Assembly (NCBI RefSeq): GCF_000015805.1
Contig: NC_009073.1
Location: forward strand, 600,001 to 632,000
Direction of reading: 5' to 3'
Length of the DNA: 32,000 bases
Source: Pyrobaculum calidifontis JCM 11548
GTDB lineage: Archaea > Thermoproteota > Thermoprotei > Thermoproteales > Thermoproteaceae
In this document: piece after piece, positions 1 to 10,056 of the stretch
Layout: every line of letters starts with the position of its first letter
How positions within the stretch are numbered: position 1 is the first letter of the stretch
The notes under the pieces: generated by a model
Database searches by the model: none
What the model was told of the DNA's origin: nothing
What the model saw: the letters and a program-made list of their open reading frames with translations, nothing else
Made by a program: the position numbers and the translations under genes

Positions 1-1281
1 GAGCAGATAGGCAAGTTGATAACGCAACTCGCAAACCTCGGCATAGACGCCGACCGGTATGACAGAGTGAGAGACTTCTCGAAGCAGGTGCCGATTGTCC
101 CCACGAGCGCGGTCACCGGCGAGGGGGTGGCCGACCTGCTCCTGGTGCTTGCTGGGGTTAGCCAGCGGTTTATACCGCGGGAGAAGCTCCAAGTCAGAGA
201 CGGCCCCGCGCGCGGCGTCGTGATGGAGGTGAAGGAGGAGAGGGGCCTCGGGGTCGTGGCCGACGTCATTTTGTACGACGGCAAGCTGAGGAAGGGCGAC
301 GTGATAGTCACGGCGGGGCTAGACGGGTCTCGGCAGGCCAAGGTGAGGATGCTCATAATGCCGAAGTCGCTGGAGGAGATGCGGGACCCCGAGGACAAGT
401 TCATGGCTGTGCAAGAGGTGGAGGCGGCGGCGGGCGTGAGGGTAGTGGCGGAGGGGCTTGAGGGCGTGGTGGCGGGCGCCCCGCTTCTAGCCGTGTGGGA
501 CCCAAAGGACCTCCCCGAGGCGCTTAAGAGCGTGGGGGAGGAGATAGCGGAGATCAAAATAGAGTCGGACAAGGAGGGCGTAATCGTTAGAGCAGACACC
601 TTCGGCACTCTGGAGAGCATAATACTCTTCTTAAGACAGCAGGGAGTCCCCGTCAGAAAGGCGGACGTGGGGCCGCCTACGCACAAGGACGTGGTGGAGG
701 CGGTGCTGAGCAGGAGGAAGAACCCCGCCTACGGAGCAATCCTGGCCTTCAACGTGAAAGTGCCCCCGGAGGTGGAGACCGAGGCCCAGTCCTCTGGAGT
801 GAAGATAATACGCGGGGAAATCCTCTACCGCATATTCGACGAGTACGTCAAGTGGTCTACCGAGGTGAAGACGAAGACCGTTGAGCAAGTGCTCTCCCAG
901 CTCACCCGCCCCGCGAAAATCCAAATACTCCCCGGCTACGTGTTTAGGAGGAGCGACCCGGCCATAGTGGGCGTGAAAGTGTTGGCCGGAACGCTCAAGC
1001 CCGGCGTCACCTTGGCCAAAGACGGCAGAGAAGTGGGCAAGGTAATGCAGATACAGCGCCAGGGCAAACCCGTCGCAGAGGCTGTGGCAGGCGACGAGGT
1101 GGCCATATCTATACAGGGAGACGTCATAGTGGGCCGTCAGATAAAGGAGGGAGACGTGCTCTACGTCTATATCCCAGACGAGCAGGCCAGACAGTGGCTA
1201 TTCCGCTACAAGCAGTACCTCAGAAAAGACGAGGTAGAGGCCTTAGAGGAGTACCTGAAGACAAGAAAGAAGTCAGCATAA
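1..1281 (+). CDS. infB: Translation initiation factor aIF5B (IF2-type), C-terminal ~425 aa; the 5' end lies outside the window
   Basis: Frame 1 is open from base 1, so track ORF 16..1281 is only the first in-frame Met. The sequence after the GTPase domain is typical of aIF5B domains II-IV: [78 protein letters not shown]. Confidence 0.85.
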
Positions 1282-1641
1282 ATACTCTTTAACAAATCTG
1301 CCGAGCTGTTGGTCGCAGTTGGCGACGAGATATACAACACCCTCCCTCGATTGTTTTCTCGACAGTGCCGCCGCAATCTTGGGAACCATGGGGTCAACCC
1401 TCCTATGCCCGTGGGCAACTGCCACTATAAGCCCAAAGCCCTGGTAGTCAACAAGAGAGCCCCTCCTAATTGTTTCCACAGTGGCCACCAGCTGGTCTAT
1501 GTCGCGTTTTCTTACGTCCTCAGCCTCTTCTACGACCATTAAAGCTCGCCATCCAACGAGTAAATAATCGGCGCGCTGCTGACCGCCCATTACCAGCAAC
1601 TCGTCTAAGTCGATTCTTTCGGGCCTGCACGTGTCGCTCAT
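1273..1641 (-). CDS. Hypothetical 122-aa protein, second gene of the ATPase operon; possible minimal TOPRIM-like fold (speculative)
   Basis: The ATG at 1641 directly abuts the ATPase stop (TGA 1644-1642, giving TGAATG), so the two genes are co-transcribed or coupled. I recognise no family. The strand/helix alternation is ALMVVEE (E38/E39) - helix - GLIVAVAHG - helix - VVYLVANCD(110)QQ. This places an acidic residue at the end of strand 1 and an Asp about 70 aa later, as in TOPRIM, but there is no intact DxD. The 3' end overlaps the infB stop by 9 nt (convergent). Confidence 0.5.
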
Positions 1642-3027
1642 TCAGCTAGAGAGTATCCTCGCCCTCTCCTCGGCGAGCTCCACGGCGACGCTTGCGAACT
1701 CATCCTCTGAGAATCCCTCCGGCCCAACATCGAGCTTTTCCACAACCGCTCTGTCCCCCTCCGCCTTGACGAGGTACGCGGCCACCGACTCGGGGCGCAA
1801 CACCTCATCCTCGGCGAATCCCAAGGCCCTCGCCCTCTCGGGGGACCGCGAAAGCGCTATGAGGTCGTTCAGCCTATAGAGCATGTAGTCGCTGTGCGTC
1901 GTCAAAACCACGTGCTTACCCCTATTAACTGCCTTCGCGATAAGCCGTGCCAATGCCCCCTGGGCCCGCGGGTGTAAATGAGCCTCAGGCTCCTCTATTA
2001 TTACCACGTGTGGCGGCCCTCTTGAAGAAAGCGCAATGGCTACCGTTAAAACCTCCCTTATTCCAGACGGCGCCTGTGGAAGCCTCAGCCGCTTGCCGCT
2101 CCAAGTCTTGATGTGTATAGTGTACACTCCCTCCTCGATTACAGGCTCAACAGAACATCCCATTTCTAAAAGCAGAGGCTTAACAGCGGCTAAGTCAATA
2201 CTTTCCTTAGCTACCCATTCAGCTAATGCATAATATAGTTCAACGTATTGCTTATCAGGGTATGTTATAGCTATCGGGATATACGGCCTTAGAAGGGTCC
2301 GGGATATTCCAGCGCGACTATCAGGCAAAAGCGCAGAAAAGAGCTCAAGAAAGGGAAAAAGTCCGACGGGAAGGGGTAAGGGGATAAGGTGTTTGAACGG
2401 TCCACCGAGAGTTAACATTATATAAACGCTTACAAACGTGTATAGTAATTCTATAATACTAAATCTGCTTGTTCTTGTTAGTGGAACACTTATTGTAAAG
2501 CGACTTTTATCATAACTAATCGTTACTTCTCTTTGCGAAGTTTTGATCTCGCTTATAAATTCATCAATAGATGGTCCTTTTATAGAAACATCTACATTTT
2601 TTCCATTGATAGTAGTTTCTATCGAAGTCCTCTCCCCCTTAAGCGTTATTGTTGCGTGGTTTGCTCCCTCTCTAACTAATTCGTCTAGATCGAATGTGAA
2701 GACTTTCTTAAGTGCCTCCTCTACGCTTGGTGCAAGAGCTTTGGGCAATACATAGATTGCTATGTTCATAAGTTCCATAAGCTCTTCTTTAAAGTCGTCA
2801 CCACGCTTAGCTTTCTCAATTACAGCTTCCAGCGCCTTGTTGCCCCCAGCATCAACGATAGCTTTTTCAAGTCTTGTTGGACGTGGGATAGCCAGGGTCA
2901 GCGCCCATATGAGATATGCCAACATGGACTTCCCCACGCTGTTTCTACCAATGAAGACAGTCAAGGGCTTGAGCTCTACCTCAGCCTCCCCGAAGGGTCC
3001 AAAGTCTTTTACAACAAGCCTTACCAC
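1642..3027 (-). CDS. ABC/SMC-like AAA ATPase (AAA_15/AAA_21 class 'predicted ATPase'), 461 aa
   Basis: GTG start at 3027 with an AAATTATTTTA TATA-like box about 25 nt upstream (within 3047-3061). Motifs: Walker A GRNSVGKS (aa 27-34), signature-like PSGIREV, Walker B/D-loop VVIIEEPEAHLHP, H-loop LTTHSD. A long insertion separates the A and B motifs. The central part of the gene is much more AT-rich than its ends. Confidence 0.85.
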   Translation of the reverse strand: MVRLVVKDFGPFGEAEVELKPLTVFIGRNSVGKSMLAYLIWALTLAIPRPTRLEKAIVDAGGNKALEAVIEKAKRGDDFKEELMELMNIAIYVLPKALAPSVEEALKKVFTFDLDELVREGANHATITLKGERTSIETTINGKNVDVSIKGPSIDEFISEIKTSQREVTISYDKSRFTISVPLTRTSRFSIIELLYTFVSVYIMLTLGGPFKHLIPLPLPVGLFPFLELFSALLPDSRAGISRTLLRPYIPIAITYPDKQYVELYYALAEWVAKESIDLAAVKPLLLEMGCSVEPVIEEGVYTIHIKTWSGKRLRLPQAPSGIREVLTVAIALSSRGPPHVVIIEEPEAHLHPRAQGALARLIAKAVNRGKHVVLTTHSDYMLYRLNDLIALSRSPERARALGFAEDEVLRPESVAAYLVKAEGDRAVVEKLDVGPEGFSEDEFASVAVELAEERARILSS

Positions 3028-3112
3028 AATGCATTGTTTGCCAGAACGTAAAATAATTTACTAAACGGCGACACCGGGGACGAGCAAGCTTCGATGGAGA
3101 ATAGGAGGGGTA

Positions 3113-3197
3113 TGCGGGGGGTGGGATTTGAACCCACGTAGGCCTACGCCACAGGGTCTTGAGCCCTGCCCCTTTGGCCTGGCTCGGGCACCCCCGC
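3113..3197 (-). tRNA. tRNA-Leu (anticodon CAA), no intron seen, CCA not encoded
   Basis: Minus-strand read: GCGGGGG-TG-CCCGAGCCAGGCCAAAGGGG-CAGGG-CTCAAGA-CCCTG-TGGCGTAGGCCTACG-GTGGG-TTCAAAT-CCCAC-CCCCCGC-A. It has a 7-bp acceptor stem, a 5-bp anticodon stem with loop CTCAAGA, the long variable arm typical of Leu, and a T-arm GTGGG/CCCAC with a TTCAAAT loop. Confidence 0.95.
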
Positions 3198-3224: not shown

Positions 3225-3627
3225 GCTTTCTCGCCGTAGTGAGGCGCTGTTAGTTGGCGTCAGCCTGCGCATATAGACGTCTATGTTGTTGTAGCCTCTT
3301 TATGTGCTTCAGGCCGTTTCTGAGAATTATTGTGCCGTAACTTCATCTGGATAGGGCCATGGACGATGCGGAGATTATTAGGGCTATTGAGAATGCCATA
3401 TGAGGTTGACGGCCGCTATGAGCTCGCCGAGGCGGCGAGGCGCGCAGTGAGGCAGATACCGTGGATGCGTTGGCCGCGGCTTGGGGGCCCAAGTCTCTCG
3501 ACAAGGTGAGGGAGAAGCTTGAGAGCTGGGTTTTCTATCTCGCTGTGGTTGAGTCGATGCGCCATTTAGGGAGAGGGCGGCTGGGCGAGAGGTTGCAAAA
3601 GTTTTAACTTCACAATCCCTCTTTTCT

Positions 3628-4053
3628 GTGCTTAGGCTTCCGCCTAGGGTTAAGGTGTTGGAGGCGCTGGGGGCGTTAGCGGATGGGAGAGTTAAGAGGG
3701 TGGGGGAGGGGGTGTGTGAGGTGGTGTCGTCGGAGGGGGATAGGGTGTACCACGTGGCTGTGAGGGGGGTGTATGTGAGTAGTGATGACAATGGGACTGT
3801 GTATAGGGGGTATGTGGGGTATCCCATTATCGCCTGTCTCATGGCTGAGGGCAGACTGCCGATGGATTGGGAGCTGGCGGAGCGGCTCAGGGGCGTGCCG
3901 TGGAGGAAGTTGAACGAGTTGTACAAGAGGTATGACGAGGTGGTTAAACACGTCTACGCAGAGCGGCGTATTGACAGATCTAGGGCCGAGCGTTACATAT
4001 CTACGGTGTTGGAGCAGTTGGCCAAGATGGGCCTACGCCGTGAGGGTCCTTGA
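3628..4053 (+). CDS. Conserved-looking hypothetical protein, 141 aa
   Basis: GTG start at 3628 lies about 25 nt downstream of aaagttttaac (3598-3608). Codon usage is protein-like. The 3' end overlaps the probable queE GTG start by 14 nt, which suggests an operon. I recognise no motif. Confidence 0.6.
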   Translation: MLRLPPRVKVLEALGALADGRVKRVGEGVCEVVSSEGDRVYHVAVRGVYVSSDDNGTVYRGYVGYPIIACLMAEGRLPMDWELAERLRGVPWRKLNELYKRYDEVVKHVYAERRIDRSRAERYISTVLEQLAKMGLRREGP

Positions 4054-4690
4054 GATATTCGCCTCGTTGCAGGGGGAGGGCGTCAACTTGGGCAAGCCGG
4101 CAGTCTTCGTGAGGCTGGCCGGATGTCCCATTAGGTGCGTGTACTGCGACACGGAGTACTCTTGGGACTTCAACGGGGGCGTCGAGATGTCGCCGGGGGA
4201 GGCCGTGCGGCGCGCCGAGGAGCTGGGGGTGAGGGGCCACGTGGTGGTGACTGGGGGCGAGCCGCTTGTGTGGATGCGGAGGGGCCTCGAGGAGCTTGTC
4301 TGTGGGCTGAGGCGGCTTGGGGCGGTGGAGGTTGAGACCAGCGGAGTATACGCGCCTACGCCCGAGCTAGACGCATGTGCGGACTTCTACGACGTGTCTC
4401 CCAAGTTGTCTAACGCCGGGGTGAAGGCCCCCCTGAGCCCCTTCTACCCCAAGAGCCCCAAGGTGTGGTTTAAATTCGTAGTGGCGGACGTGGCCGACGT
4501 GGAGGAGGCCCTGGCCTACGTAAGGGAGAGGGGGATCCCCCTAGACAGAGTTATGCTAATGCCCATGTCGAAGACGCCGGAGGAGCACGCCGAGGTCCTC
4601 AGGAGGATCTGGGACGCGGCAGTGAGGGCAGGCCTTAGGGTAACCCCGAGGCTCCACATAGTGGCGTGGGGAAACGCGAGGGGCAAGTGA
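4040..4690 (+). CDS. queE: 7-carboxy-7-deazaguanine synthase QueE (radical SAM)
   Basis: N-terminus VRVLEIFASLQGEGVNLGKPAVFVRLAGCPIRCVYCDTEYSW carries the QueE LQGEG motif and the CxxxCxxC radical-SAM cluster. GTG 4040 is chosen because the track ORF start (3932) runs through the upstream gene in another frame. The C-terminus PRLHIVAWGNARGK is typical. Confidence 0.85.
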   Translation: MRVLEIFASLQGEGVNLGKPAVFVRLAGCPIRCVYCDTEYSWDFNGGVEMSPGEAVRRAEELGVRGHVVVTGGEPLVWMRRGLEELVCGLRRLGAVEVETSGVYAPTPELDACADFYDVSPKLSNAGVKAPLSPFYPKSPKVWFKFVVADVADVEEALAYVRERGIPLDRVMLMPMSKTPEEHAEVLRRIWDAAVRAGLRVTPRLHIVAWGNARGK

Positions 4691-5081
4691 GGCGGCTTAC
4701 GAAGCCTACTCCCCGCGGGGCCCCGCCCTTAGGCCGAATTGGTTCGCTGTTTTCTACGGCGAATTTCCGCCGAGTCGGCGGCGCCTTTAACTAAACGGCG
4801 CGCCGTGGTTAAAAGCGGGGATTCAAAGGCTGTACATAAATGTATTTAGATTGTTCAAATAGGCGCCGTTGTGCCTGCCCAGTGGTGGCAGTTGGGTCTG
4901 GAGAATGCGCGTGTTTCGGTAAACTCCACATCACTCCCACGCTGTCTACATCGTTTTTAAACTGTCGTCTGTCACGCGGTGATATGCACCCACGCTCTAA
5001 CTTGGGGGAATTGGCCAAATTTTACGTGGAGGGGGCGAGACTGACGGTAAAGCAAACGTCCCATTTCCTGGGAAACTCATC

Positions 5082-5154
5082 GGGGGAGGGGATGATGAGA
5101 GGGAACTAAGGGGACAGATGCCCGTTGACCTGCTCACTGACTCTCCCCTCCCCC
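5082..5154 (+). ncRNA. C/D-box-like k-turn RNA unit (left arm) closed by a 10-bp terminal stem
   Basis: GGGGGAGGGG (5082-5091) is followed by a C box ATGATGA (5092-5098) and 12 nt. Then come GGGA-CAG-ATGCCCG (degenerate D'/C' that can form a small GGG/CCC hairpin) and 12 nt TTGACCTGCTCA. A D box CTGA (5137-5140), CTCT and CCCCTCCCCC (5145-5154, a perfect complement of 5082-5091) complete the unit. A T-rich tract follows. Confidence 0.45.
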
Positions 5155-5720
5155 TCTTTCTAGTAAACTCTTTGTGGGTTTAGATAAACTTTTCTCCGCC
5201 GACCCGATACTCTACTATTCATGACTCTGAACTTTCATGAGTTGGTAGTCGCTCCTGGCGGCGGTTGTGTGCTGATTAAAGTTTCGGTAACCTCCTTTAG
5301 CCAGACGTTGCATAACTTCGGCGATAGACTGGCGAAAAGGTAGGAGGGTACATATATGGCGTAGTTAAAACGAGCGAGCTTGTTGCAGGCGCATATAGCC
5401 CAGGCATGCTGAACAAGAATCGGCTTAGAGATGCGCTCTACGTTGAGATACCCACCTTTATTGCCTATGAGCAACGCGAGAAGTCGGTAAAAGAGCTGTT
5501 GAACATACTGGCCGCCGCTATGTCATATACCCCCTGCCCCTTTTCGCTAGGTGCATCGCCGAAGTTGGGCAACTCTGGCCGGAGGAGGCCGCCGAGGCTA
5601 GAAATTGGCGCACAGCCGCCAGGGGCGACTGTCAACTCGTGAATGTTCAGAGTCATGAATAGTAGAATATCAGGTCGGCGGGAAAAATTTTTCTAAGCCT
5701 ACAAATAGTTTATATGGAGA

Positions 5721-5792
5721 GGGGGAGGGGAGTGTCAGCTAGCATGGGTTCGGGCAGGAGCCCTTGCCAATCCGCTCATCATTCCCTCCCCC
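5721..5792 (-). ncRNA. C/D-box-like k-turn RNA unit (right arm, mirror paralogue)
   Basis: Minus-strand read: GGGGGAGGGA (5792-5783), C box ATGATGA (5782-5776), 12 nt GCGGATTGGCAA, GGGC-TC-CTGCCCG, 12 nt AACCCATGCTAG, D box CTGA (5738-5735), CACT, CCCCTCCCCC (5730-5721). Boxes, spacing and terminal stem are conserved with the left copy, while both 12-nt guide-position segments differ. Confidence 0.45.
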
Positions 5793-6239
5793 AATGAATT
5801 TTCCCATGACGTATAAGAGCAACCACACTTGCCCACTTCCTCCTCTCTCCATGGAAAACTTGGCCAACTTCCTCGGCCTGAAACACAGATGTATACCACC
5901 ACGTGACAGACGTCGGTTTAAAAGCGAGTGTAGACAGTGTGGAAGCGAGGGGGGTCGCTGAATCTTATGTCTTCCTCAAGTTCAACTGTCACCAGTGGGC
6001 AGGGGCGGCTCCAGCTGTAGCGCGCCGTGTCAATTTGAATGATGTTCGTTTTTGTATCGCTCTTGAACCTCCGCTCTTAACCACGGCGCGCAGGCAAATT
6101 GAAGATACTGCCAATCGGCGGGATCCGCCGTGGGGAACGGCGAAGGTCTTCGGCTTAAAGGCGGGGTCCTTCGGTGAACCGGCTCTTAGAGTTTGATTAA
6201 AAGTGCAAAACTTATCAAGTCGCTCTTGTAATACGGTCT

Positions 6240-8600
6240 GTGAAGCTGCACGTGTGGCTCACCGTTGCCTCGGTAGTGCTCGGCGTGTTGCAGGTAGGTG
6301 CGCAGTACGTATGCGCCACTGCGGGCGAGCTTGGCGTTGCTGGGCGTAGCCCGCTGGTGCAGTTCATGGTGTGGGACGGCGGCTGGAAGCCCGTGGAGGC
6401 CTACGTGGAGGGCGTAGATGCCCTCTTTGTGCCAGCCCCCCTTGCCCGCGGCAACGAGGCGGCGATTTCGCTGGTCGCACAGAGGGGCGTCCTGCCCCCC
6501 GGCGTCTTGAAAAACGAGACCTTGATATGCTTCAAGCCGGGCAGTGGAATTCCCAAGTTGCCCCGGGACACGCCCCGTGGACTACTCGTCGTGTACAAGG
6601 CGGGGGGCGCGGAAGGCCACGTGCTAATCGTCGACGTAGCCGACGTAGACAGGCCAGCACAGCCGCTGGCTGCCGCCGCACTTCCCAAGAACTTCACCAA
6701 GGTCCAGGTGGTGGAGAGACAGTGGGTTGGGAGCCCCGCGGGCCGCGCCGTGGAGCTAGCCCAGGTGGGCGCCTTGCCCTCTCCCATCTCCTACGCGGCC
6801 TCGTTCAGCCTAAGAAGCTTCTTCGGCGCGCAACTGTCGCCCGGCGAATTGAGGTGTAGCTACTTTGACGTCCCCAGCGAGACCAGCTACGTGGCAGTCT
6901 ACTTTAGGCCGGGGACGGACCCAGGCACCTACTACTACGAGGTTAAGAGAAACGGGACACTGGCGTCAAGCGGAGTTATCTCCTACACTGGCGGCCCGTT
7001 TGGGACAGCTCTGTGGGCCAGCGAAACCGGCGGCAGAGCCACCTACCAGCTCTGCATCCAGAACAAAGACAACGTCACGCGGTCCGTCTCGGCGACGGTA
7101 TACCTCTACGTGAGAAACCAGCTAAACATCATCAGAGACGACGCGTATTATACCAACGTCATAGATGTCGACATGTCCACGTCTCAGCGGAGGAACTACC
7201 GCATGTCTAATACGTATTTGTACTTCCCCGGCTACGTGGACATAGACGCGGCGAGCGTCATACAGATCTACGTCTCAGCCCTCTTGAACCCAGAGGCTGT
7301 GCGCAAGGACTCCCAGGGCAGGTACTACATCGACGTGTACTGGGGACAGCTCTATATGGGCAGGCTGTATGGCATATCCACCGCCAGCGGCGTCAAGTTC
7401 GATGGAGTTTTAACAGTCCCAGCGTTCCTACACTGGATAATTACAAACACGCGGGGGTACGGCGGCACGATATCGATAGGCCCCTTCAACTACCCAGCCT
7501 ACCCAGTTAAGGGCAGTGCACGAGTAGATGTCTTTGTGGAGAGGCCCGTGGAGCTGGCCAACGCCAGCTCTGCCGTGTTGATCCATTATGCGACTGTAAG
7601 GCTCAGAGCTGACGCATCCTATCACGATGTAATGCCGTGGTCCAGCGGCTTCAAAGGCGTCTCTTTTAAGACTAGAGTGGAATTTGTATTCAGCGGCTCA
7701 GCTGGTCATAAACTTGTAGTATCAATAAATCCATACAAGTGGAATAATGTTGAAAATGATATAAGGTATAGAAGAATTACTATTAATATAACAGGTATAG
7801 ATTATTATGGTAACCCTGTGAAGTTTAGCGCTGGCGGCCAGTTCGACTTAAATGCTCAAAGTACCACAGGCCAGTTGGCGAGGCTGATTGAGTGGGCATC
7901 CATAATTCTGCAAGGTCTCGATCTAGGAAAGGCCGTCGTAGATTATCTTGCAAAGGCTCCCTCGTCGTTTCCCACCGTCTCCTTCATAACTATTGCACTA
8001 GACGCCTATGTCAATGCCATACAAGAAAAAGGCACTGTGCAGATTTCGCCAGATGGCACTATTATGAAGATCGGCGTATATACAGGGTATTTGTTCAACA
8101 TTCCACTTTACCTACTGTTTTTCTTGCGTTTTCCCGTGCCCGATCTGCTTCCGCCGTCTGTGATTTCATGGTTTTCTGCCTACTACTTGGCGCACGGCCG
8201 CCGCATTTTTCCGCCGGCCCTCTACCTTGCGGCGTTTGCCTCCTCTCTCTTAGATTCGTTGTATTTTGGCCCCCGCGTTGGATCGCTGGCCTCGCCTGTG
8301 GTGTTGCTGGCGGCGCTGGCTTTGGCCGTGCTTTACGCGGCTACTTTTGCGAGGGGCTTTGGGCAGAGGGTGGCCTCTGTGGTGCTCCTCGTATTAGCCG
8401 TGGCGGTGGGCCACGTCCTCGTGGTGGCGGCGGCTGTGGCGTGGCGAGCCCTGGCGCCTCCGCTGGGCTTTCTGCCCCTGCCCGAGCCCCTGGACCTCCC
8501 CCTCTATCTGTTGGCCTTCGCGGTGTTCTACCTCGTCCATTATAAAGGCCTGGGTTACCTACACAGGTGGTGTGAAAGCCGCAGGGTGAGAGGCGCCTAG
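6240..8600 (+). CDS. Large orphan membrane glycoprotein: N-terminal signal/anchor, ~600-aa extracellular region, C-terminal polytopic membrane domain
   Basis: GTG start. The N-terminus is hydrophobic (LHVWLTVASVVLGVLQVGA). There are many N-x-S/T sequons (NET, NFT, NGT, NVT, NAS, NIT). The last ~200 aa contain several hydrophobic helices (e.g. LASPVVLLAALALAVLYAATF, VASVVLLVLAVAVGHVLVVAAAVAW, LPLYLLAFAVFYLV). I recognise no family. Confidence 0.7.
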   Translation: MKLHVWLTVASVVLGVLQVGAQYVCATAGELGVAGRSPLVQFMVWDGGWKPVEAYVEGVDALFVPAPLARGNEAAISLVAQRGVLPPGVLKNETLICFKPGSGIPKLPRDTPRGLLVVYKAGGAEGHVLIVDVADVDRPAQPLAAAALPKNFTKVQVVERQWVGSPAGRAVELAQVGALPSPISYAASFSLRSFFGAQLSPGELRCSYFDVPSETSYVAVYFRPGTDPGTYYYEVKRNGTLASSGVISYTGGPFGTALWASETGGRATYQLCIQNKDNVTRSVSATVYLYVRNQLNIIRDDAYYTNVIDVDMSTSQRRNYRMSNTYLYFPGYVDIDAASVIQIYVSALLNPEAVRKDSQGRYYIDVYWGQLYMGRLYGISTASGVKFDGVLTVPAFLHWIITNTRGYGGTISIGPFNYPAYPVKGSARVDVFVERPVELANASSAVLIHYATVRLRADASYHDVMPWSSGFKGVSFKTRVEFVFSGSAGHKLVVSINPYKWNNVENDIRYRRITINITGIDYYGNPVKFSAGGQFDLNAQSTTGQLARLIEWASIILQGLDLGKAVVDYLAKAPSSFPTVSFITIALDAYVNAIQEKGTVQISPDGTIMKIGVYTGYLFNIPLYLLFFLRFPVPDLLPPSVISWFSAYYLAHGRRIFPPALYLAAFASSLLDSLYFGPRVGSLASPVVLLAALALAVLYAATFARGFGQRVASVVLLVLAVAVGHVLVVAAAVAWRALAPPLGFLPLPEPLDLPLYLLAFAVFYLVHYKGLGYLHRWCESRRVRGA

Positions 8601-8974
8601 GCGCACAGCGCTGGCCGCCTAAGACGGCGCCAGAGGAGGTCGCCATCTGCCGACATGTGCTACGTCTCTAGCCCAGCACGGCTGGGGCTTCTGCCCCGCC
8701 TACACGACACGTTGATTGAAAAACTGTATCGACGCAACGCCGCCGATCCGCCGACGCGTTTGCCTAAGCGTCTCAATTCCTTTACTTTAGTCACAAACTA
8801 GTGGGCTCTTGGACTGTGTCTAAGAACTGCGTCTCTGGTTGTCGATAGCGCTTCTTAGAGAGCCGCTGTTCATGGACGTGTCTGGCTAATGCGAGGTGCT
8901 TCTAGCCGCCCTGGCGTGTGGCCGATTCCAAGCCCCTCGGGGAGATAAAATATTTACCCCTCTCCTTCTCCTCC

Positions 8975-9109
8975 ATGGCTCGCACCAAGGCGGAGAGACT
9001 GCGCGACGCCATTGAGATGCTTGAGACGGCTGTGGAGGAGAGGGATTGTAGCCTCGTGGAGGATGCGCTAGAGGAGCTACGCGCGTTGCTTGAGGAGCTG
9101 GAGGAGTGA
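8975..9109 (+). CDS. Small acidic helical protein (44 aa), translationally coupled to the dipeptidase
   Basis: ATG 8975 lies 22-28 nt downstream of the TATA-like ataaaatattta (8945-8956). The sequence is MARTKAERLRDAIEMLETAVEERDCSLVEDALEELRALLEELEE. Its stop overlaps the next start (GTGATG). The track ORF start at 8918 precedes the TATA box. Confidence 0.45.
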   Translation: MARTKAERLRDAIEMLETAVEERDCSLVEDALEELRALLEELEE

Positions 9110-10029
9110 TGCTCGTCGACTTGCACGAGGATATTGCACACTATTTTCTCACCTCTCTCAACCCCCCTCCGTTTCACGAGGACGCGGAGGGAAGGCAGAG
9201 CGACTTGCCTAAGCTGAGGAGGGCGGGCGCCGATGTGGTAGTCGCCGCGGTGTTCCCCTTTGTCCACGTCTACGATAGGTGGGCCGCCGCGTCTCAAGTG
9301 GCGCTGGAGGGGGTGAAGGTGTACTACTCCCTCGCCGAGAGATACGGCGTGAGGATAGTGGAGCGCGCAAGCGACCTCTGGGCCCCCGCGCTTAAGTTCA
9401 TGCTGGCGCTGGAGGGCGCAGACGTGTTAAACGACGTTGGCGACCTCAAGCTGTTTTATAGGCTGGGCATACGCGTCTTGGGGATTACGTGGAATTTAGA
9501 CAACAAGTGGGGCCACTCTTGCTACGCCAAGCGTGACGGAGGCTTGACCGCCAGCGGCGAGGAGCTCGTCGCCGAGGCCGAGAGGCTGGGAGTGGTCATA
9601 GACCTCGCCCATGCCAGCCGCCGCACGGCTTTAGACGTCTTGGCCATGGCCAAGAGGCCTGTGATAATAAGCCACGCCAACGTAAAAGCCGTCCACGACC
9701 ACCCGCGCAACGTCGACGACGAGGTGTTAAAGGCCTTGGCGGACAACGGCGGGGTAATAGGCCTCACACTGATCCCCTCCACTATCTCCCCCTCCCCCTC
9801 TCTCAACCACTTGGTAAAGCACTTCAAGTACGTGAGGGAGAAGTTTGGGGTGGAGGTACTCGCCGTGGGGACAGACTTCCTTGGCATTTCCTCGGCGCCT
9901 CCTGGGCTGGAGACTGTGGACAAGGTAGCTGTTTTGGCCAAGGCGCTTGTGGAGGTCGGCTTTTCCAAAGAGGAGGTAGAGGCCGTGTTTTGGAGAAACG
10001 CGCTACAAGTCTTTAAGAGGGCCTTATAA
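9109..10029 (+). CDS. Membrane (renal-type) dipeptidase, peptidase family M19
   Basis: The N-terminal LVDLHEDIAHY matches the M19 metal-binding DxHxD motif. The sequence has a TIM-barrel-like pattern with LGITWN, VIDLAHAS, PVIISHANV and GTDF. The start could be ATG 9109 or GTG 9106. Confidence 0.75.
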   Translation: MLVDLHEDIAHYFLTSLNPPPFHEDAEGRQSDLPKLRRAGADVVVAAVFPFVHVYDRWAAASQVALEGVKVYYSLAERYGVRIVERASDLWAPALKFMLALEGADVLNDVGDLKLFYRLGIRVLGITWNLDNKWGHSCYAKRDGGLTASGEELVAEAERLGVVIDLAHASRRTALDVLAMAKRPVIISHANVKAVHDHPRNVDDEVLKALADNGGVIGLTLIPSTISPSPSLNHLVKHFKYVREKFGVEVLAVGTDFLGISSAPPGLETVDKVAVLAKALVEVGFSKEEVEAVFWRNALQVFKRAL

Positions 10030-10056
10030 CTTATAAGGTTGAAACGGCTTTGGTGC

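Follow-up and report, generated by a model that had tools for sequence, protein, structure and literature searches.

A head-to-head pair of C/D-box small RNA-like units within a strain-specific insertion of probable mobile-element debris in Pyrobaculum

The closest described counterparts of the element considered here are the at least 15 'MITE-like elements resembling sRNAs' of Pyrobaculum calidifontis, namely sR131, sR133, sR137, sR139, sR141 and ten further copies, in which small RNAs (sRNAs) are likened to miniature inverted-repeat transposable elements (MITEs) (Lui et al. 2018, NAR 46:5678; PMC6009581). These elements combine near-consensus C and D boxes with highly degenerate D' and C' boxes and guides of modest similarity, carry conserved imperfect inverted repeats flanking the boxes, and lie in unaligned, unstable regions; their guides are orphans or have non-conserved tRNA targets, and high fractions of their reads are antisense. 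Such elements were not found in five other species by the same authors, who proposed, for one species and with no vehicle given, a transposon-like proliferation of some C/D sRNA genes of Pyrobaculum (PMC6009581). The stretch analysed here, 32,000 nucleotides of contig NC_009073.1 (positions 600,001 to 632,000; hereafter the window), contains two C/D-box-like units in mirror arrangement that are probably copies of a repeated element of this kind lying in mobile-element debris. An initial annotation had taken them for C/D-box-like RNA modules, a view that holds in that the conserved boxes, spacers and stems and the variable guide positions follow RNA logic, and had seen in them the signature of paralogous methylation guides, a view that is not supported as far as ordinary housekeeping guides are concerned: the pair consists of two head-to-head copies of a repeat in a strain-specific insertion of mobile-element debris.

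Anatomy and family of the units

Both units are built in the same order and, read directly, have every base where it had been annotated, including the C-to-D spacings of 38 nucleotides (nt) on the left and 37 nt on the right.

5082-5154, plus strand: left unit, 73 nt, C/D-box-like (sequence read directly; family covariance model 88.4 bits, E=5e-17)
5082-5091, plus: left 5' clamp GGGGGAGGGG
5092-5098, plus: left box C ATGATGA
5099-5110, plus: left first 12-nt segment (D' position) GAGGGAACTAAG
5111-5124, plus: left GC hairpin GGGACAGATGCCCG
5125-5136, plus: left second 12-nt segment (D guide) TTGACCTGCTCA
5137-5140, plus: left box D CTGA
5141-5144, plus: left 4-nt spacer CTCT
5145-5154, plus: left 3' clamp, C-rich strand CCCCTCCCCC
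5792-5721, minus strand: right unit, 72 nt, C/D-box-like (sequence read directly; family covariance model 81.3 bits, E=1.8e-15)
5792-5783, minus: right 5' clamp GGGGGAGGGA
5782-5776, minus: right box C ATGATGA
5775-5764, minus: right first 12-nt segment GCGGATTGGCAA
5763-5751, minus: right hairpin GGGCTCCTGCCCG
5750-5739, minus: right second 12-nt segment (D guide) AACCCATGCTAG
5738-5735, minus: right box D CTGA
5734-5731, minus: right 4-nt spacer CACT
5730-5721, minus: right 3' clamp, C-rich strand CCCCTCCCCC

Within the 32 kb the two units are the only [AG]TGATGA-N28-48-CTGA sites on either strand, and the clamp-plus-C-box motif GGGGGAGGGRATGATGA, allowing up to three mismatches, returns two exact matches (both units) and one 3-mismatch match, with 0.19 expected. 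Left and right units agree at 16/17 and 17/18 positions in their box-plus-clamp parts, and at 4/12 and 5/12 in their 12-nt segments. No Rfam family reaches its gathering score for either unit, the best C/D match, sR36, scoring 16 bits where the gathering threshold is 55 bits; the other Rfam matches, weak and chance-level microRNA hairpins, were discarded.

The family covariance model identifies 14 unit copies in related Pyrobaculum-type metagenome contigs (designated below by L numbers), and at least three of these copies lie on contigs of similar 165-190x coverage from one assembly, two of which end at or near the repeat. Two patterns served for family scans, the first built from the clamp and boxes and the second from the hairpin instead of the clamp, with GTDB taken as one genome per species (185,579 species-representative genomes). 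The clamp/box pattern has no match in these genomes and none in IMG/VR, and in metagenomes it matches seven loci, all from two ENA assemblies; the hairpin-based GTDB scan returned 85 matches, nearly all in bacterial genomes, which are at chance level and were rejected.

Conservation across the family follows the anatomy closely. Box C is kept in 13 of 14 copies (L106 has ATGGTGA) and box D in all 14, and the 13 Pyrobaculum copies all have two spacers of exactly 12 nt, so that the conservation of boxes, spacers and closing stem first noted for the pair is borne out at large. Over 11 copies the mean pairwise identity is 0.91 for the clamp plus box C, 0.90 for box D plus clamp and 0.80 for the central hairpin, as against 0.50 and 0.53 for the first and second 12-nt segments and 0.38 and 0.60 for the 60 nt upstream and downstream; family-wide, the 12-nt segments are thus about as free as the flanks. 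Between close pairs of copies they are far more diverged than the flanks: the left unit of the window and its counterpart in L013 have flanks 88% identical and share 47/49 scaffold positions and 11/24 positions in the 12-nt segments, a pattern that points to cassette replacement. One D' cassette is found with different D cassettes across copies, and the cassette AGGCTTGG stands at the D' position in L015 and at the D position in L007; modular guide replacement has been described for Pyrobaculum sRNA evolution (Lui et al. 2018, PMC6009581). The four 12-nt segments of the window, initially called unrelated, do share few positions between the two units, but across the 14 copies they are fast-diverging, reshuffled variants of a few themes.

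A relative in L014 (5050-5123, minus strand; 50.7 bits in the family model), an AT-rich contig of the same sample series, is a canonical-looking C/D sRNA with the same GGGGGAGGGG/CCCCTCCCC clamp and the only D' and C' boxes seen in the family (UUGA and UGAUAU), and its D guide is related to right-arm-type guides. Given the shared clamp, the D'/C' boxes and the related D guide, the family plausibly descends from a canonical guide.

Insertion, palindrome and gene cluster

The surroundings of the units comprise the following features.

4689-8947, no strand: insertion with the palindrome, a 786-amino-acid (aa) open reading frame (ORF) and 350 bp of non-coding DNA (flanks adjacent in L005)
4703-5400, plus: left palindrome arm, one copy of the repeated unit (inverted repeats I1-I9, arm alignment)
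4954-4962: TATA-like box TTTTTAAAC, left arm
5180-5188: box TTAGATAAA, left arm, downstream of the module
5394-5525, plus: pseudogene fragment at the palindrome centre, ~44 aa (LNKNRLRDAL...LLNILAAA; BLASTP, tblastn)
5480-6184, minus: right palindrome arm, second inverted copy (arm alignment, inverted repeats)
~5684-5696: downstream A/T box, right arm
5917-5923: TATA-like box, right arm
6240-8600, plus: 786-aa membrane ORFan, adjoining the right arm, inside the insertion

The insertion sits between the QueE stop codon, at which it begins exactly, and the genes for a 44-aa ORF and peptidase M19. Window 3408-4688 corresponds by BLAST to L005 9347-10646 and window 8948-10053 to L005 10647-11744, adjacent bases; since the flanks are contiguous in L005, window 4689-8947 represents a clean insertion of 4.26 kb. 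No interruption is seen at this junction in L006, the distance between QueE and peptidase M19 is ~150 bp in L001 (P. oguniense), and in P. oguniense and the closest contigs a 42-44-aa ORF and peptidase M19 come immediately after QueE. QueE, upstream of the insertion, shares 78% identity with its P. oguniense counterpart and 94-96% with proteins from JGI hot-spring contigs. The TGA/TAA at the insertion junctions could be a 3-nt duplication but is not significant. Judged as a MITE, the unit offers its clamp as an inverted repeat; copies share conserved flanks (ACTCAT... / ...TCTT), however, and the polymorphic piece is the 4.26-kb block and not the 73-nt unit.

The palindrome (4703-6184) is imperfect and 1.5 kb long, with 80% column identity between its arms and an alternation of conserved and diverged blocks; from the outside inwards the left arm consists of outer conserved blocks, the TATA-like box, a leader of ~95 nt, the module and the downstream box. 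An arm of ~0.5-0.7 kb occurs singly in L013, L015, L016, L017, L103, L106 and L107, in L015 and L016 between ordinary genes such as those for tetrapyrrole methylase and TiaS, and because it stands alone in the latter two the palindrome is two copies of a repeated unit placed head to head. Several other readings of the arms were rejected. The palindrome does not reach into the flanking genes; the mirror ORFs 5235-5474 (minus) and 5406-5642 (plus) are alike only via the DNA repeat, which disposes of a protein-coding reading; the start of an MTLNFHEL ORF is not kept in other copies; and a bacterial promoter and terminator scan is uninformative for an archaeon.

In a related strain, represented by ENA contig L007, the insertion is found at the identical position, and both units of L007 retain the clamp, boxes, hairpin and 12-nt spacings. 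Conservation of ATGATGA and CTGA at the orthologous locus had been set beforehand as a test of the RNA reading, and both are kept there. The 12-nt segments of the window and L007 agree at 5/12 and 4/12 positions in the left arm and at 6/12 and 10/12 in the right, the last being the right-arm D guide; guides that differ even at one and the same locus argue against conserved rRNA targets. Outer parts of the arms are collinear between the two sequences and inner parts, together with the centre, are swapped between arms, so the central segment (window 5261-5538, L007 1295-1560) has been inverted by recombination within the arms, with breakpoints inside them and near the RNA units. As no recombinase gene is present, this was probably homologous recombination between the inverted repeats. 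The centre of L007 holds ~670 bp more than that of the window, including a 113-aa ORF.

That ORF leads to the wider context of the unit, which lies 110-460 nt upstream, on the same strand, of a ~114-aa ORFan gene in L007, L013, L017, L103, L104, L106 and L107. The 113-aa ORF of L007 falls in a family of 23 proteins known only from metagenomes; its candidacy as an L7Ae-like binder was dropped, there being no Pfam or PDB sequence match and an unusable AlphaFold model (predicted local distance difference score, pLDDT, 58.7). A TATATATA box of its own stands 26 nt ahead of the ATG of the 114-aa gene, which appears leaderless, and upstream of the box runs an AT-rich stretch of ~100 nt (L007 760-860, with equivalents in L107, L103 and L013) that could be the element's origin. 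Stretch and box lie between the RNA unit and the gene, in a segment that is deleted in the window. In L107 the 114-aa gene is followed by an 899-aa protein whose L105 homologue (49% identical, 801 aa) has a Walker A motif, GxxGxGKS, and weak SF3-helicase and AAA matches. L105 1-7295 (JGI 3300005799 Ga0079638_100072, at the contig end) is a tight same-strand cluster of ORFans (113, 111, 160, 176 and 102 aa) together with the 801-aa Walker-A protein, a 313-aa protein and a 766-aa protein with a faint DNA_pol_B match, and looks like an uncharacterised Pyrobaculum plasmid or virus. The cluster proteins have no PHROG, NCBIfam or IMG/VR match, and a viral origin was rejected on the lack of PHROG matches and of any IMG/VR match to the module or the Walker-A protein.

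Two stretches of the window match sequence from these contigs. The outer arm (4694-4826) is 80% identical to L105 146-278, ~130 bp near the contig end, and the fragment at the centre of the palindrome covers residues ~360-404 of the Walker-A protein of 800-900 aa, of which L105 and L107 have intact copies (54% identity to the L107 899-aa protein by BLASTP, E=1e-9; tblastn E=1e-6), with 4 non-synonymous and 1 synonymous changes. Because the unit normally precedes the 114-aa/Walker-A cluster and the centre holds a fragment of the Walker-A protein, the locus is, as far as its sequence tells, what is left, after decay and rearrangement, of a plasmid- or virus-like element.

What the 786-aa ORF has in common with the RNA units is the insertion. 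It is a fusion of genes of ~705 and ~190 aa that are separate in L007, L008 and L010, lacks ~305 bp present in L007, and has a hydrophobic C-terminus; its family comprises 6 homologues, all Pyrobaculum-type, and it has no Pfam, PHROG or NCBIfam match. Elsewhere in the window, a second insertion relative to L005 occupies 1274-3110. It includes a gene for an AAA_15/AAA_21 (AbiEii-like) ATPase (1642-3027, minus) between IF-2 and tRNA-Leu(CAA), and on the other side of this tRNA gene the B12-binding radical-SAM and PadR genes of L005 are missing from the window; the region may be a defence-type variable region beside a tRNA gene.

Fold, guide targets and competing explanations

The central element of each unit is a 4-bp GC hairpin with a tetraloop (right GGGC-UCCU-GCCC, left GGG(A)C-AGAU-GCCC), which confirms the plain hairpin initially described at the place of the C'/D' kink-loop (k-loop); internal D' and C' boxes are not present in the window units, and the right hairpin is without any GA. 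The G-rich and C-rich clamp strands are pairable in two registers. As first annotated, they do pair over 10 bp, but this register leaves 2 nt next to box C and 4 nt next to box D unpaired, which is not the geometry of a kink-turn (k-turn). In the alternative register the G-run pairs with the CUCU and CCCCU directly after CUGA to give a 9-bp stem with a 3-nt bulge (G/A-A-U) before the box C GA, and this geometry is canonical. Over nine copies pairing is about 96-97% in both registers, and the k-turn register includes one compensated change. In that register the 4 nt following box D vary among forms that still pair (C or U opposite G), two single mismatches excepted, and in the right unit of L007 the loss of the box C A is matched by CCUU with the A-U pair kept. 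RNAalifold finds no larger structured RNA over leader and unit, but the module alone, which lends no support to the early suggestion that the units could be k-turn elements of a larger RNA.

Two further complementarities were noticed. In right-arm-type copies (L015 2075-2147, L016, L017 and L103) the two 12-nt segments are partly complementary to each other, as in GGCUUGG/CCAAGCU of L015, and such units, though not all copies, could fold into a near-continuous rod. The ~95-nt leader contains a G-rich block, GGAGRGRGG (window 5025-5036 and 5847-5860, with equivalents in L013 and L015-L017), whose complement is found in the C-rich tail that follows the unit, as ATGGAGAG/CTCTCCAT of the right arm illustrates; this could be an alternative pairing or a low-complexity coincidence.

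Put together, these features suggest an element that would be transcribed as an RNA of ~72 nt in which box C (AUGAUGA) and box D (CUGA) form a k-turn closed by a 9-10-bp G/C stem, with two 12-nt single-stranded segments around a 4-bp GC hairpin at the position of the canonical C'/D' k-loop. The single k-turn of such an RNA would be the site of L7Ae binding, and Nop5-fibrillarin could be recruited to one side, which would make the RNA at best a half-functional guide. The element belongs to a multicopy unit normally placed upstream of the ~114-aa ORFan and then the 800-900-aa Walker-A protein, followed in one relative by further genes including a putative PolB, so that the cluster looks like the replication module of a plasmid or virus. 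At the present locus two units lie head to head, the genes between them deleted or cut to the 44-aa fragment and everything contained in the 4.26-kb insertion, and recombination between the arms has inverted the centre in the related strain. The 12-nt cassettes are probably reshuffled by exchange among copies of the family, the pieces of the scaffold being near-identical across copies. Anatomy, copy family, insertion, mobile-element context, conservation pattern and inversion are all shown, while transcription, the k-turn with its L7Ae binding and any methylation activity are predictions.

Targets for the guides were sought among four tRNA sequences, representing two distinct tRNA genes; there is no rRNA in the window or the related Pyrobaculum loci. 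In the window and ~156 kb of related DNA no guide has a match of at least 11/12 above chance. Pairing with the D-loop (GCCTGGTT) or the T-arm (GTGGGTT) of tRNA is modestly more frequent for D guides than for random genomic segments, but not for D' guides. Fourteen of 23 guides reach at least 8 contiguous pairs including the N+5 position, where random sets average 7.1 and 5/400 reach 14, a count drawn from the four tRNAs with guides that are not independent. The D guide of L014 forms 11 contiguous pairs with the tRNA D-loop, which 0/400 random sets reach. In the window the right unit's D guide forms 8 pairs (one G-U) with the T-arm of tRNA-Leu(CAA), whose gene lies at 3113-3197, placing N+5 at C48; the left unit's guides give no signal against the four tRNA sequences. 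This complementarity is a lead rather than a result.

One competing explanation takes the units for working methylation guides, RNAs that would form complexes with L7Ae, Nop5 and fibrillarin and, by one or both of their 12-nt segments, target 2'-O-methylation to tRNA or rRNA of the host. The canonical relative in L014 with its D-loop pairing, the behaviour of the D guides as a class and the T-arm match of the right unit all speak for this, as do the tRNA targets of some MITE-like sRNAs (Lui et al. 2018, PMC6009581). The left unit shares none of this signal, and the signal itself is weak. Archaeal guide ribonucleoproteins need juxtaposed C/D and C'/D' motifs for efficient methylation, and here the k-loop is absent; three of the four segments agree at 4-6/12 between the window and L007 (the right-arm D guide at 10/12), and the family is absent from all reference genomes scanned. 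Guide function is accordingly unproven for the pair and unlikely for the left unit, and as an account of both units it must be considered unlikely. A bolder variant envisages a plasmid- or virus-like Pyrobaculum element with its own C/D-type guide RNA, its 12-nt cassettes being rapidly exchanged and the RNA either recruiting host L7Ae, Nop5 and fibrillarin onto the D-loop or T-arm of host tRNAs or acting as a sequence-specific determinant of incompatibility or copy control between competing elements; this is more speculative still, and decidedly doubtful.

That last option adjoins a reading in which the units are regulatory RNAs of the mobile element, working as a sense/antisense hairpin pair that governs replication-gene expression or incompatibility, or as an L7Ae-binding k-turn switch, with the variable 12-nt loops as specificity determinants under diversifying selection. 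The constant position upstream of the 114-aa/Walker-A cluster and the AT-rich stretch would suit such a role, as would loops that are replaced faster than the flanks diverge. A conserved A/T box 25-35 nt downstream of every copy would allow an opposite-strand transcript from the 3' edge of the module, and the clamp is self-symmetric, so that both strands fold (there are antisense covariance-model matches); at the MITE-like loci of P. calidifontis, 39% of reads are antisense (Lui et al. 2018, PMC6009581). Exact C/D boxes and exact 12-nt spacers find no explanation in regulation, however; the TATA box of the 114-aa gene puts the module outside that gene's leader, and the module occurs in L011 and L014 with neither upstream arm nor gene cluster. 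Regulation in either mode is consequently improbable. Least probable of all, and very much so, is that the feature resides in the DNA, the 1.5-kb palindrome being a replication origin, recombination site or protein-binding array and the boxes incidental. The palindrome is large and rich in conserved blocks, it adjoins replication-type genes in intact relatives, and its arms have demonstrably recombined to give the inversion. Yet the palindromic arrangement is unique to this locus, with a single unit in L015 and L016 and no second arm in the other contigs, conservation of the module obeys RNA logic (boxes, complementary strands, fixed spacers), and the insertion has no origin-recognition or initiator gene.

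A repeated C/D-box sRNA-like element in mobile-element debris remains the probable explanation, and several points weigh against it. The discrete RNA that it presupposes is inferred. Stem covariation is not significant (115/500 shuffles reach the observed values) because the clamp hardly varies, and the clamp pairs perfectly also in the register that is incompatible with a k-turn. The two exact-pattern scans of GTDB species representatives gave no Thermoproteales match, and with it no sequence homology to the P. calidifontis elements. Neither the single unit nor the 4.26-kb insertion has convincing terminal inverted repeats or a target-site duplication, so there is no proof that the unit transposes. 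Finally, the mobile-element nature of the cluster rests on weak domain matches (E ~0.003-0.02) plus context.

Comparison with known systems

If the units are what they seem, they constitute a second, sequence-distinct family of the same architecture, linked to a plasmid- or virus-like cluster and exchanging its guide cassettes, and if that link holds it offers a concrete and testable path by which methylation-guide RNAs could arise, spread and replace their guides in archaea. A further question that follows is whether the methylation machinery of the host is put to use by mobile elements. The bolder proposal, if true, would make this the first case of an archaeal mobile element using a programmable C/D-type RNA, and would supply a vehicle for the spread of C/D sRNA genes. 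Should the RNAs be inert, the locus would simply be mobile-element debris.

With canonical archaeal box C/D sRNAs the units share RUGAUGA/CUGA boxes, a k-turn-compatible stem, 12-nt spacers, a length of ~70 nt and a relative, in L014, with the same clamp. They differ in having no C'/D' k-loop, an unusually long GC terminal stem of 9-10 bp, guides that are not conserved between orthologous loci, a mobile-element context and no Rfam match at threshold; since the C'/D' feature is lacking, they are not filed as canonical methylation guides. Plasmid antisense (countertranscript) RNAs of the ColE1 RNAI and R1 CopA class control copy number and incompatibility, and resemble the units in their stable stem with variable loops, their position upstream of replication-type genes and their rapid loop diversification. 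In contrast to that class, the module here lies outside the downstream gene's leader, and the antisense transcript is hypothetical.

The likeness to the MITE-like elements of P. calidifontis is one of description, and within that limit every descriptive feature tested is found here: near-consensus C/D boxes, degenerate D'/C' and imperfect inverted repeats flanking the boxes; multiple copies (at least three on the 165-190x contigs and two in the window) with guide identity of 0.50-0.53 against 0.90 for the scaffold; an unstable location, the insertion being absent from L001, L005 and L006; and guides that are orphan or fall on non-conserved tRNA sites. Expression is known for those elements, whereas the present family is known from sequence alone. 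Here, moreover, D'/C' is replaced by a defined and conserved 4-bp GC hairpin, two copies form a 1.5-kb palindrome, and the unit is tied to the 114-aa/Walker-A cluster, a link not reported by Lui et al. (2018).

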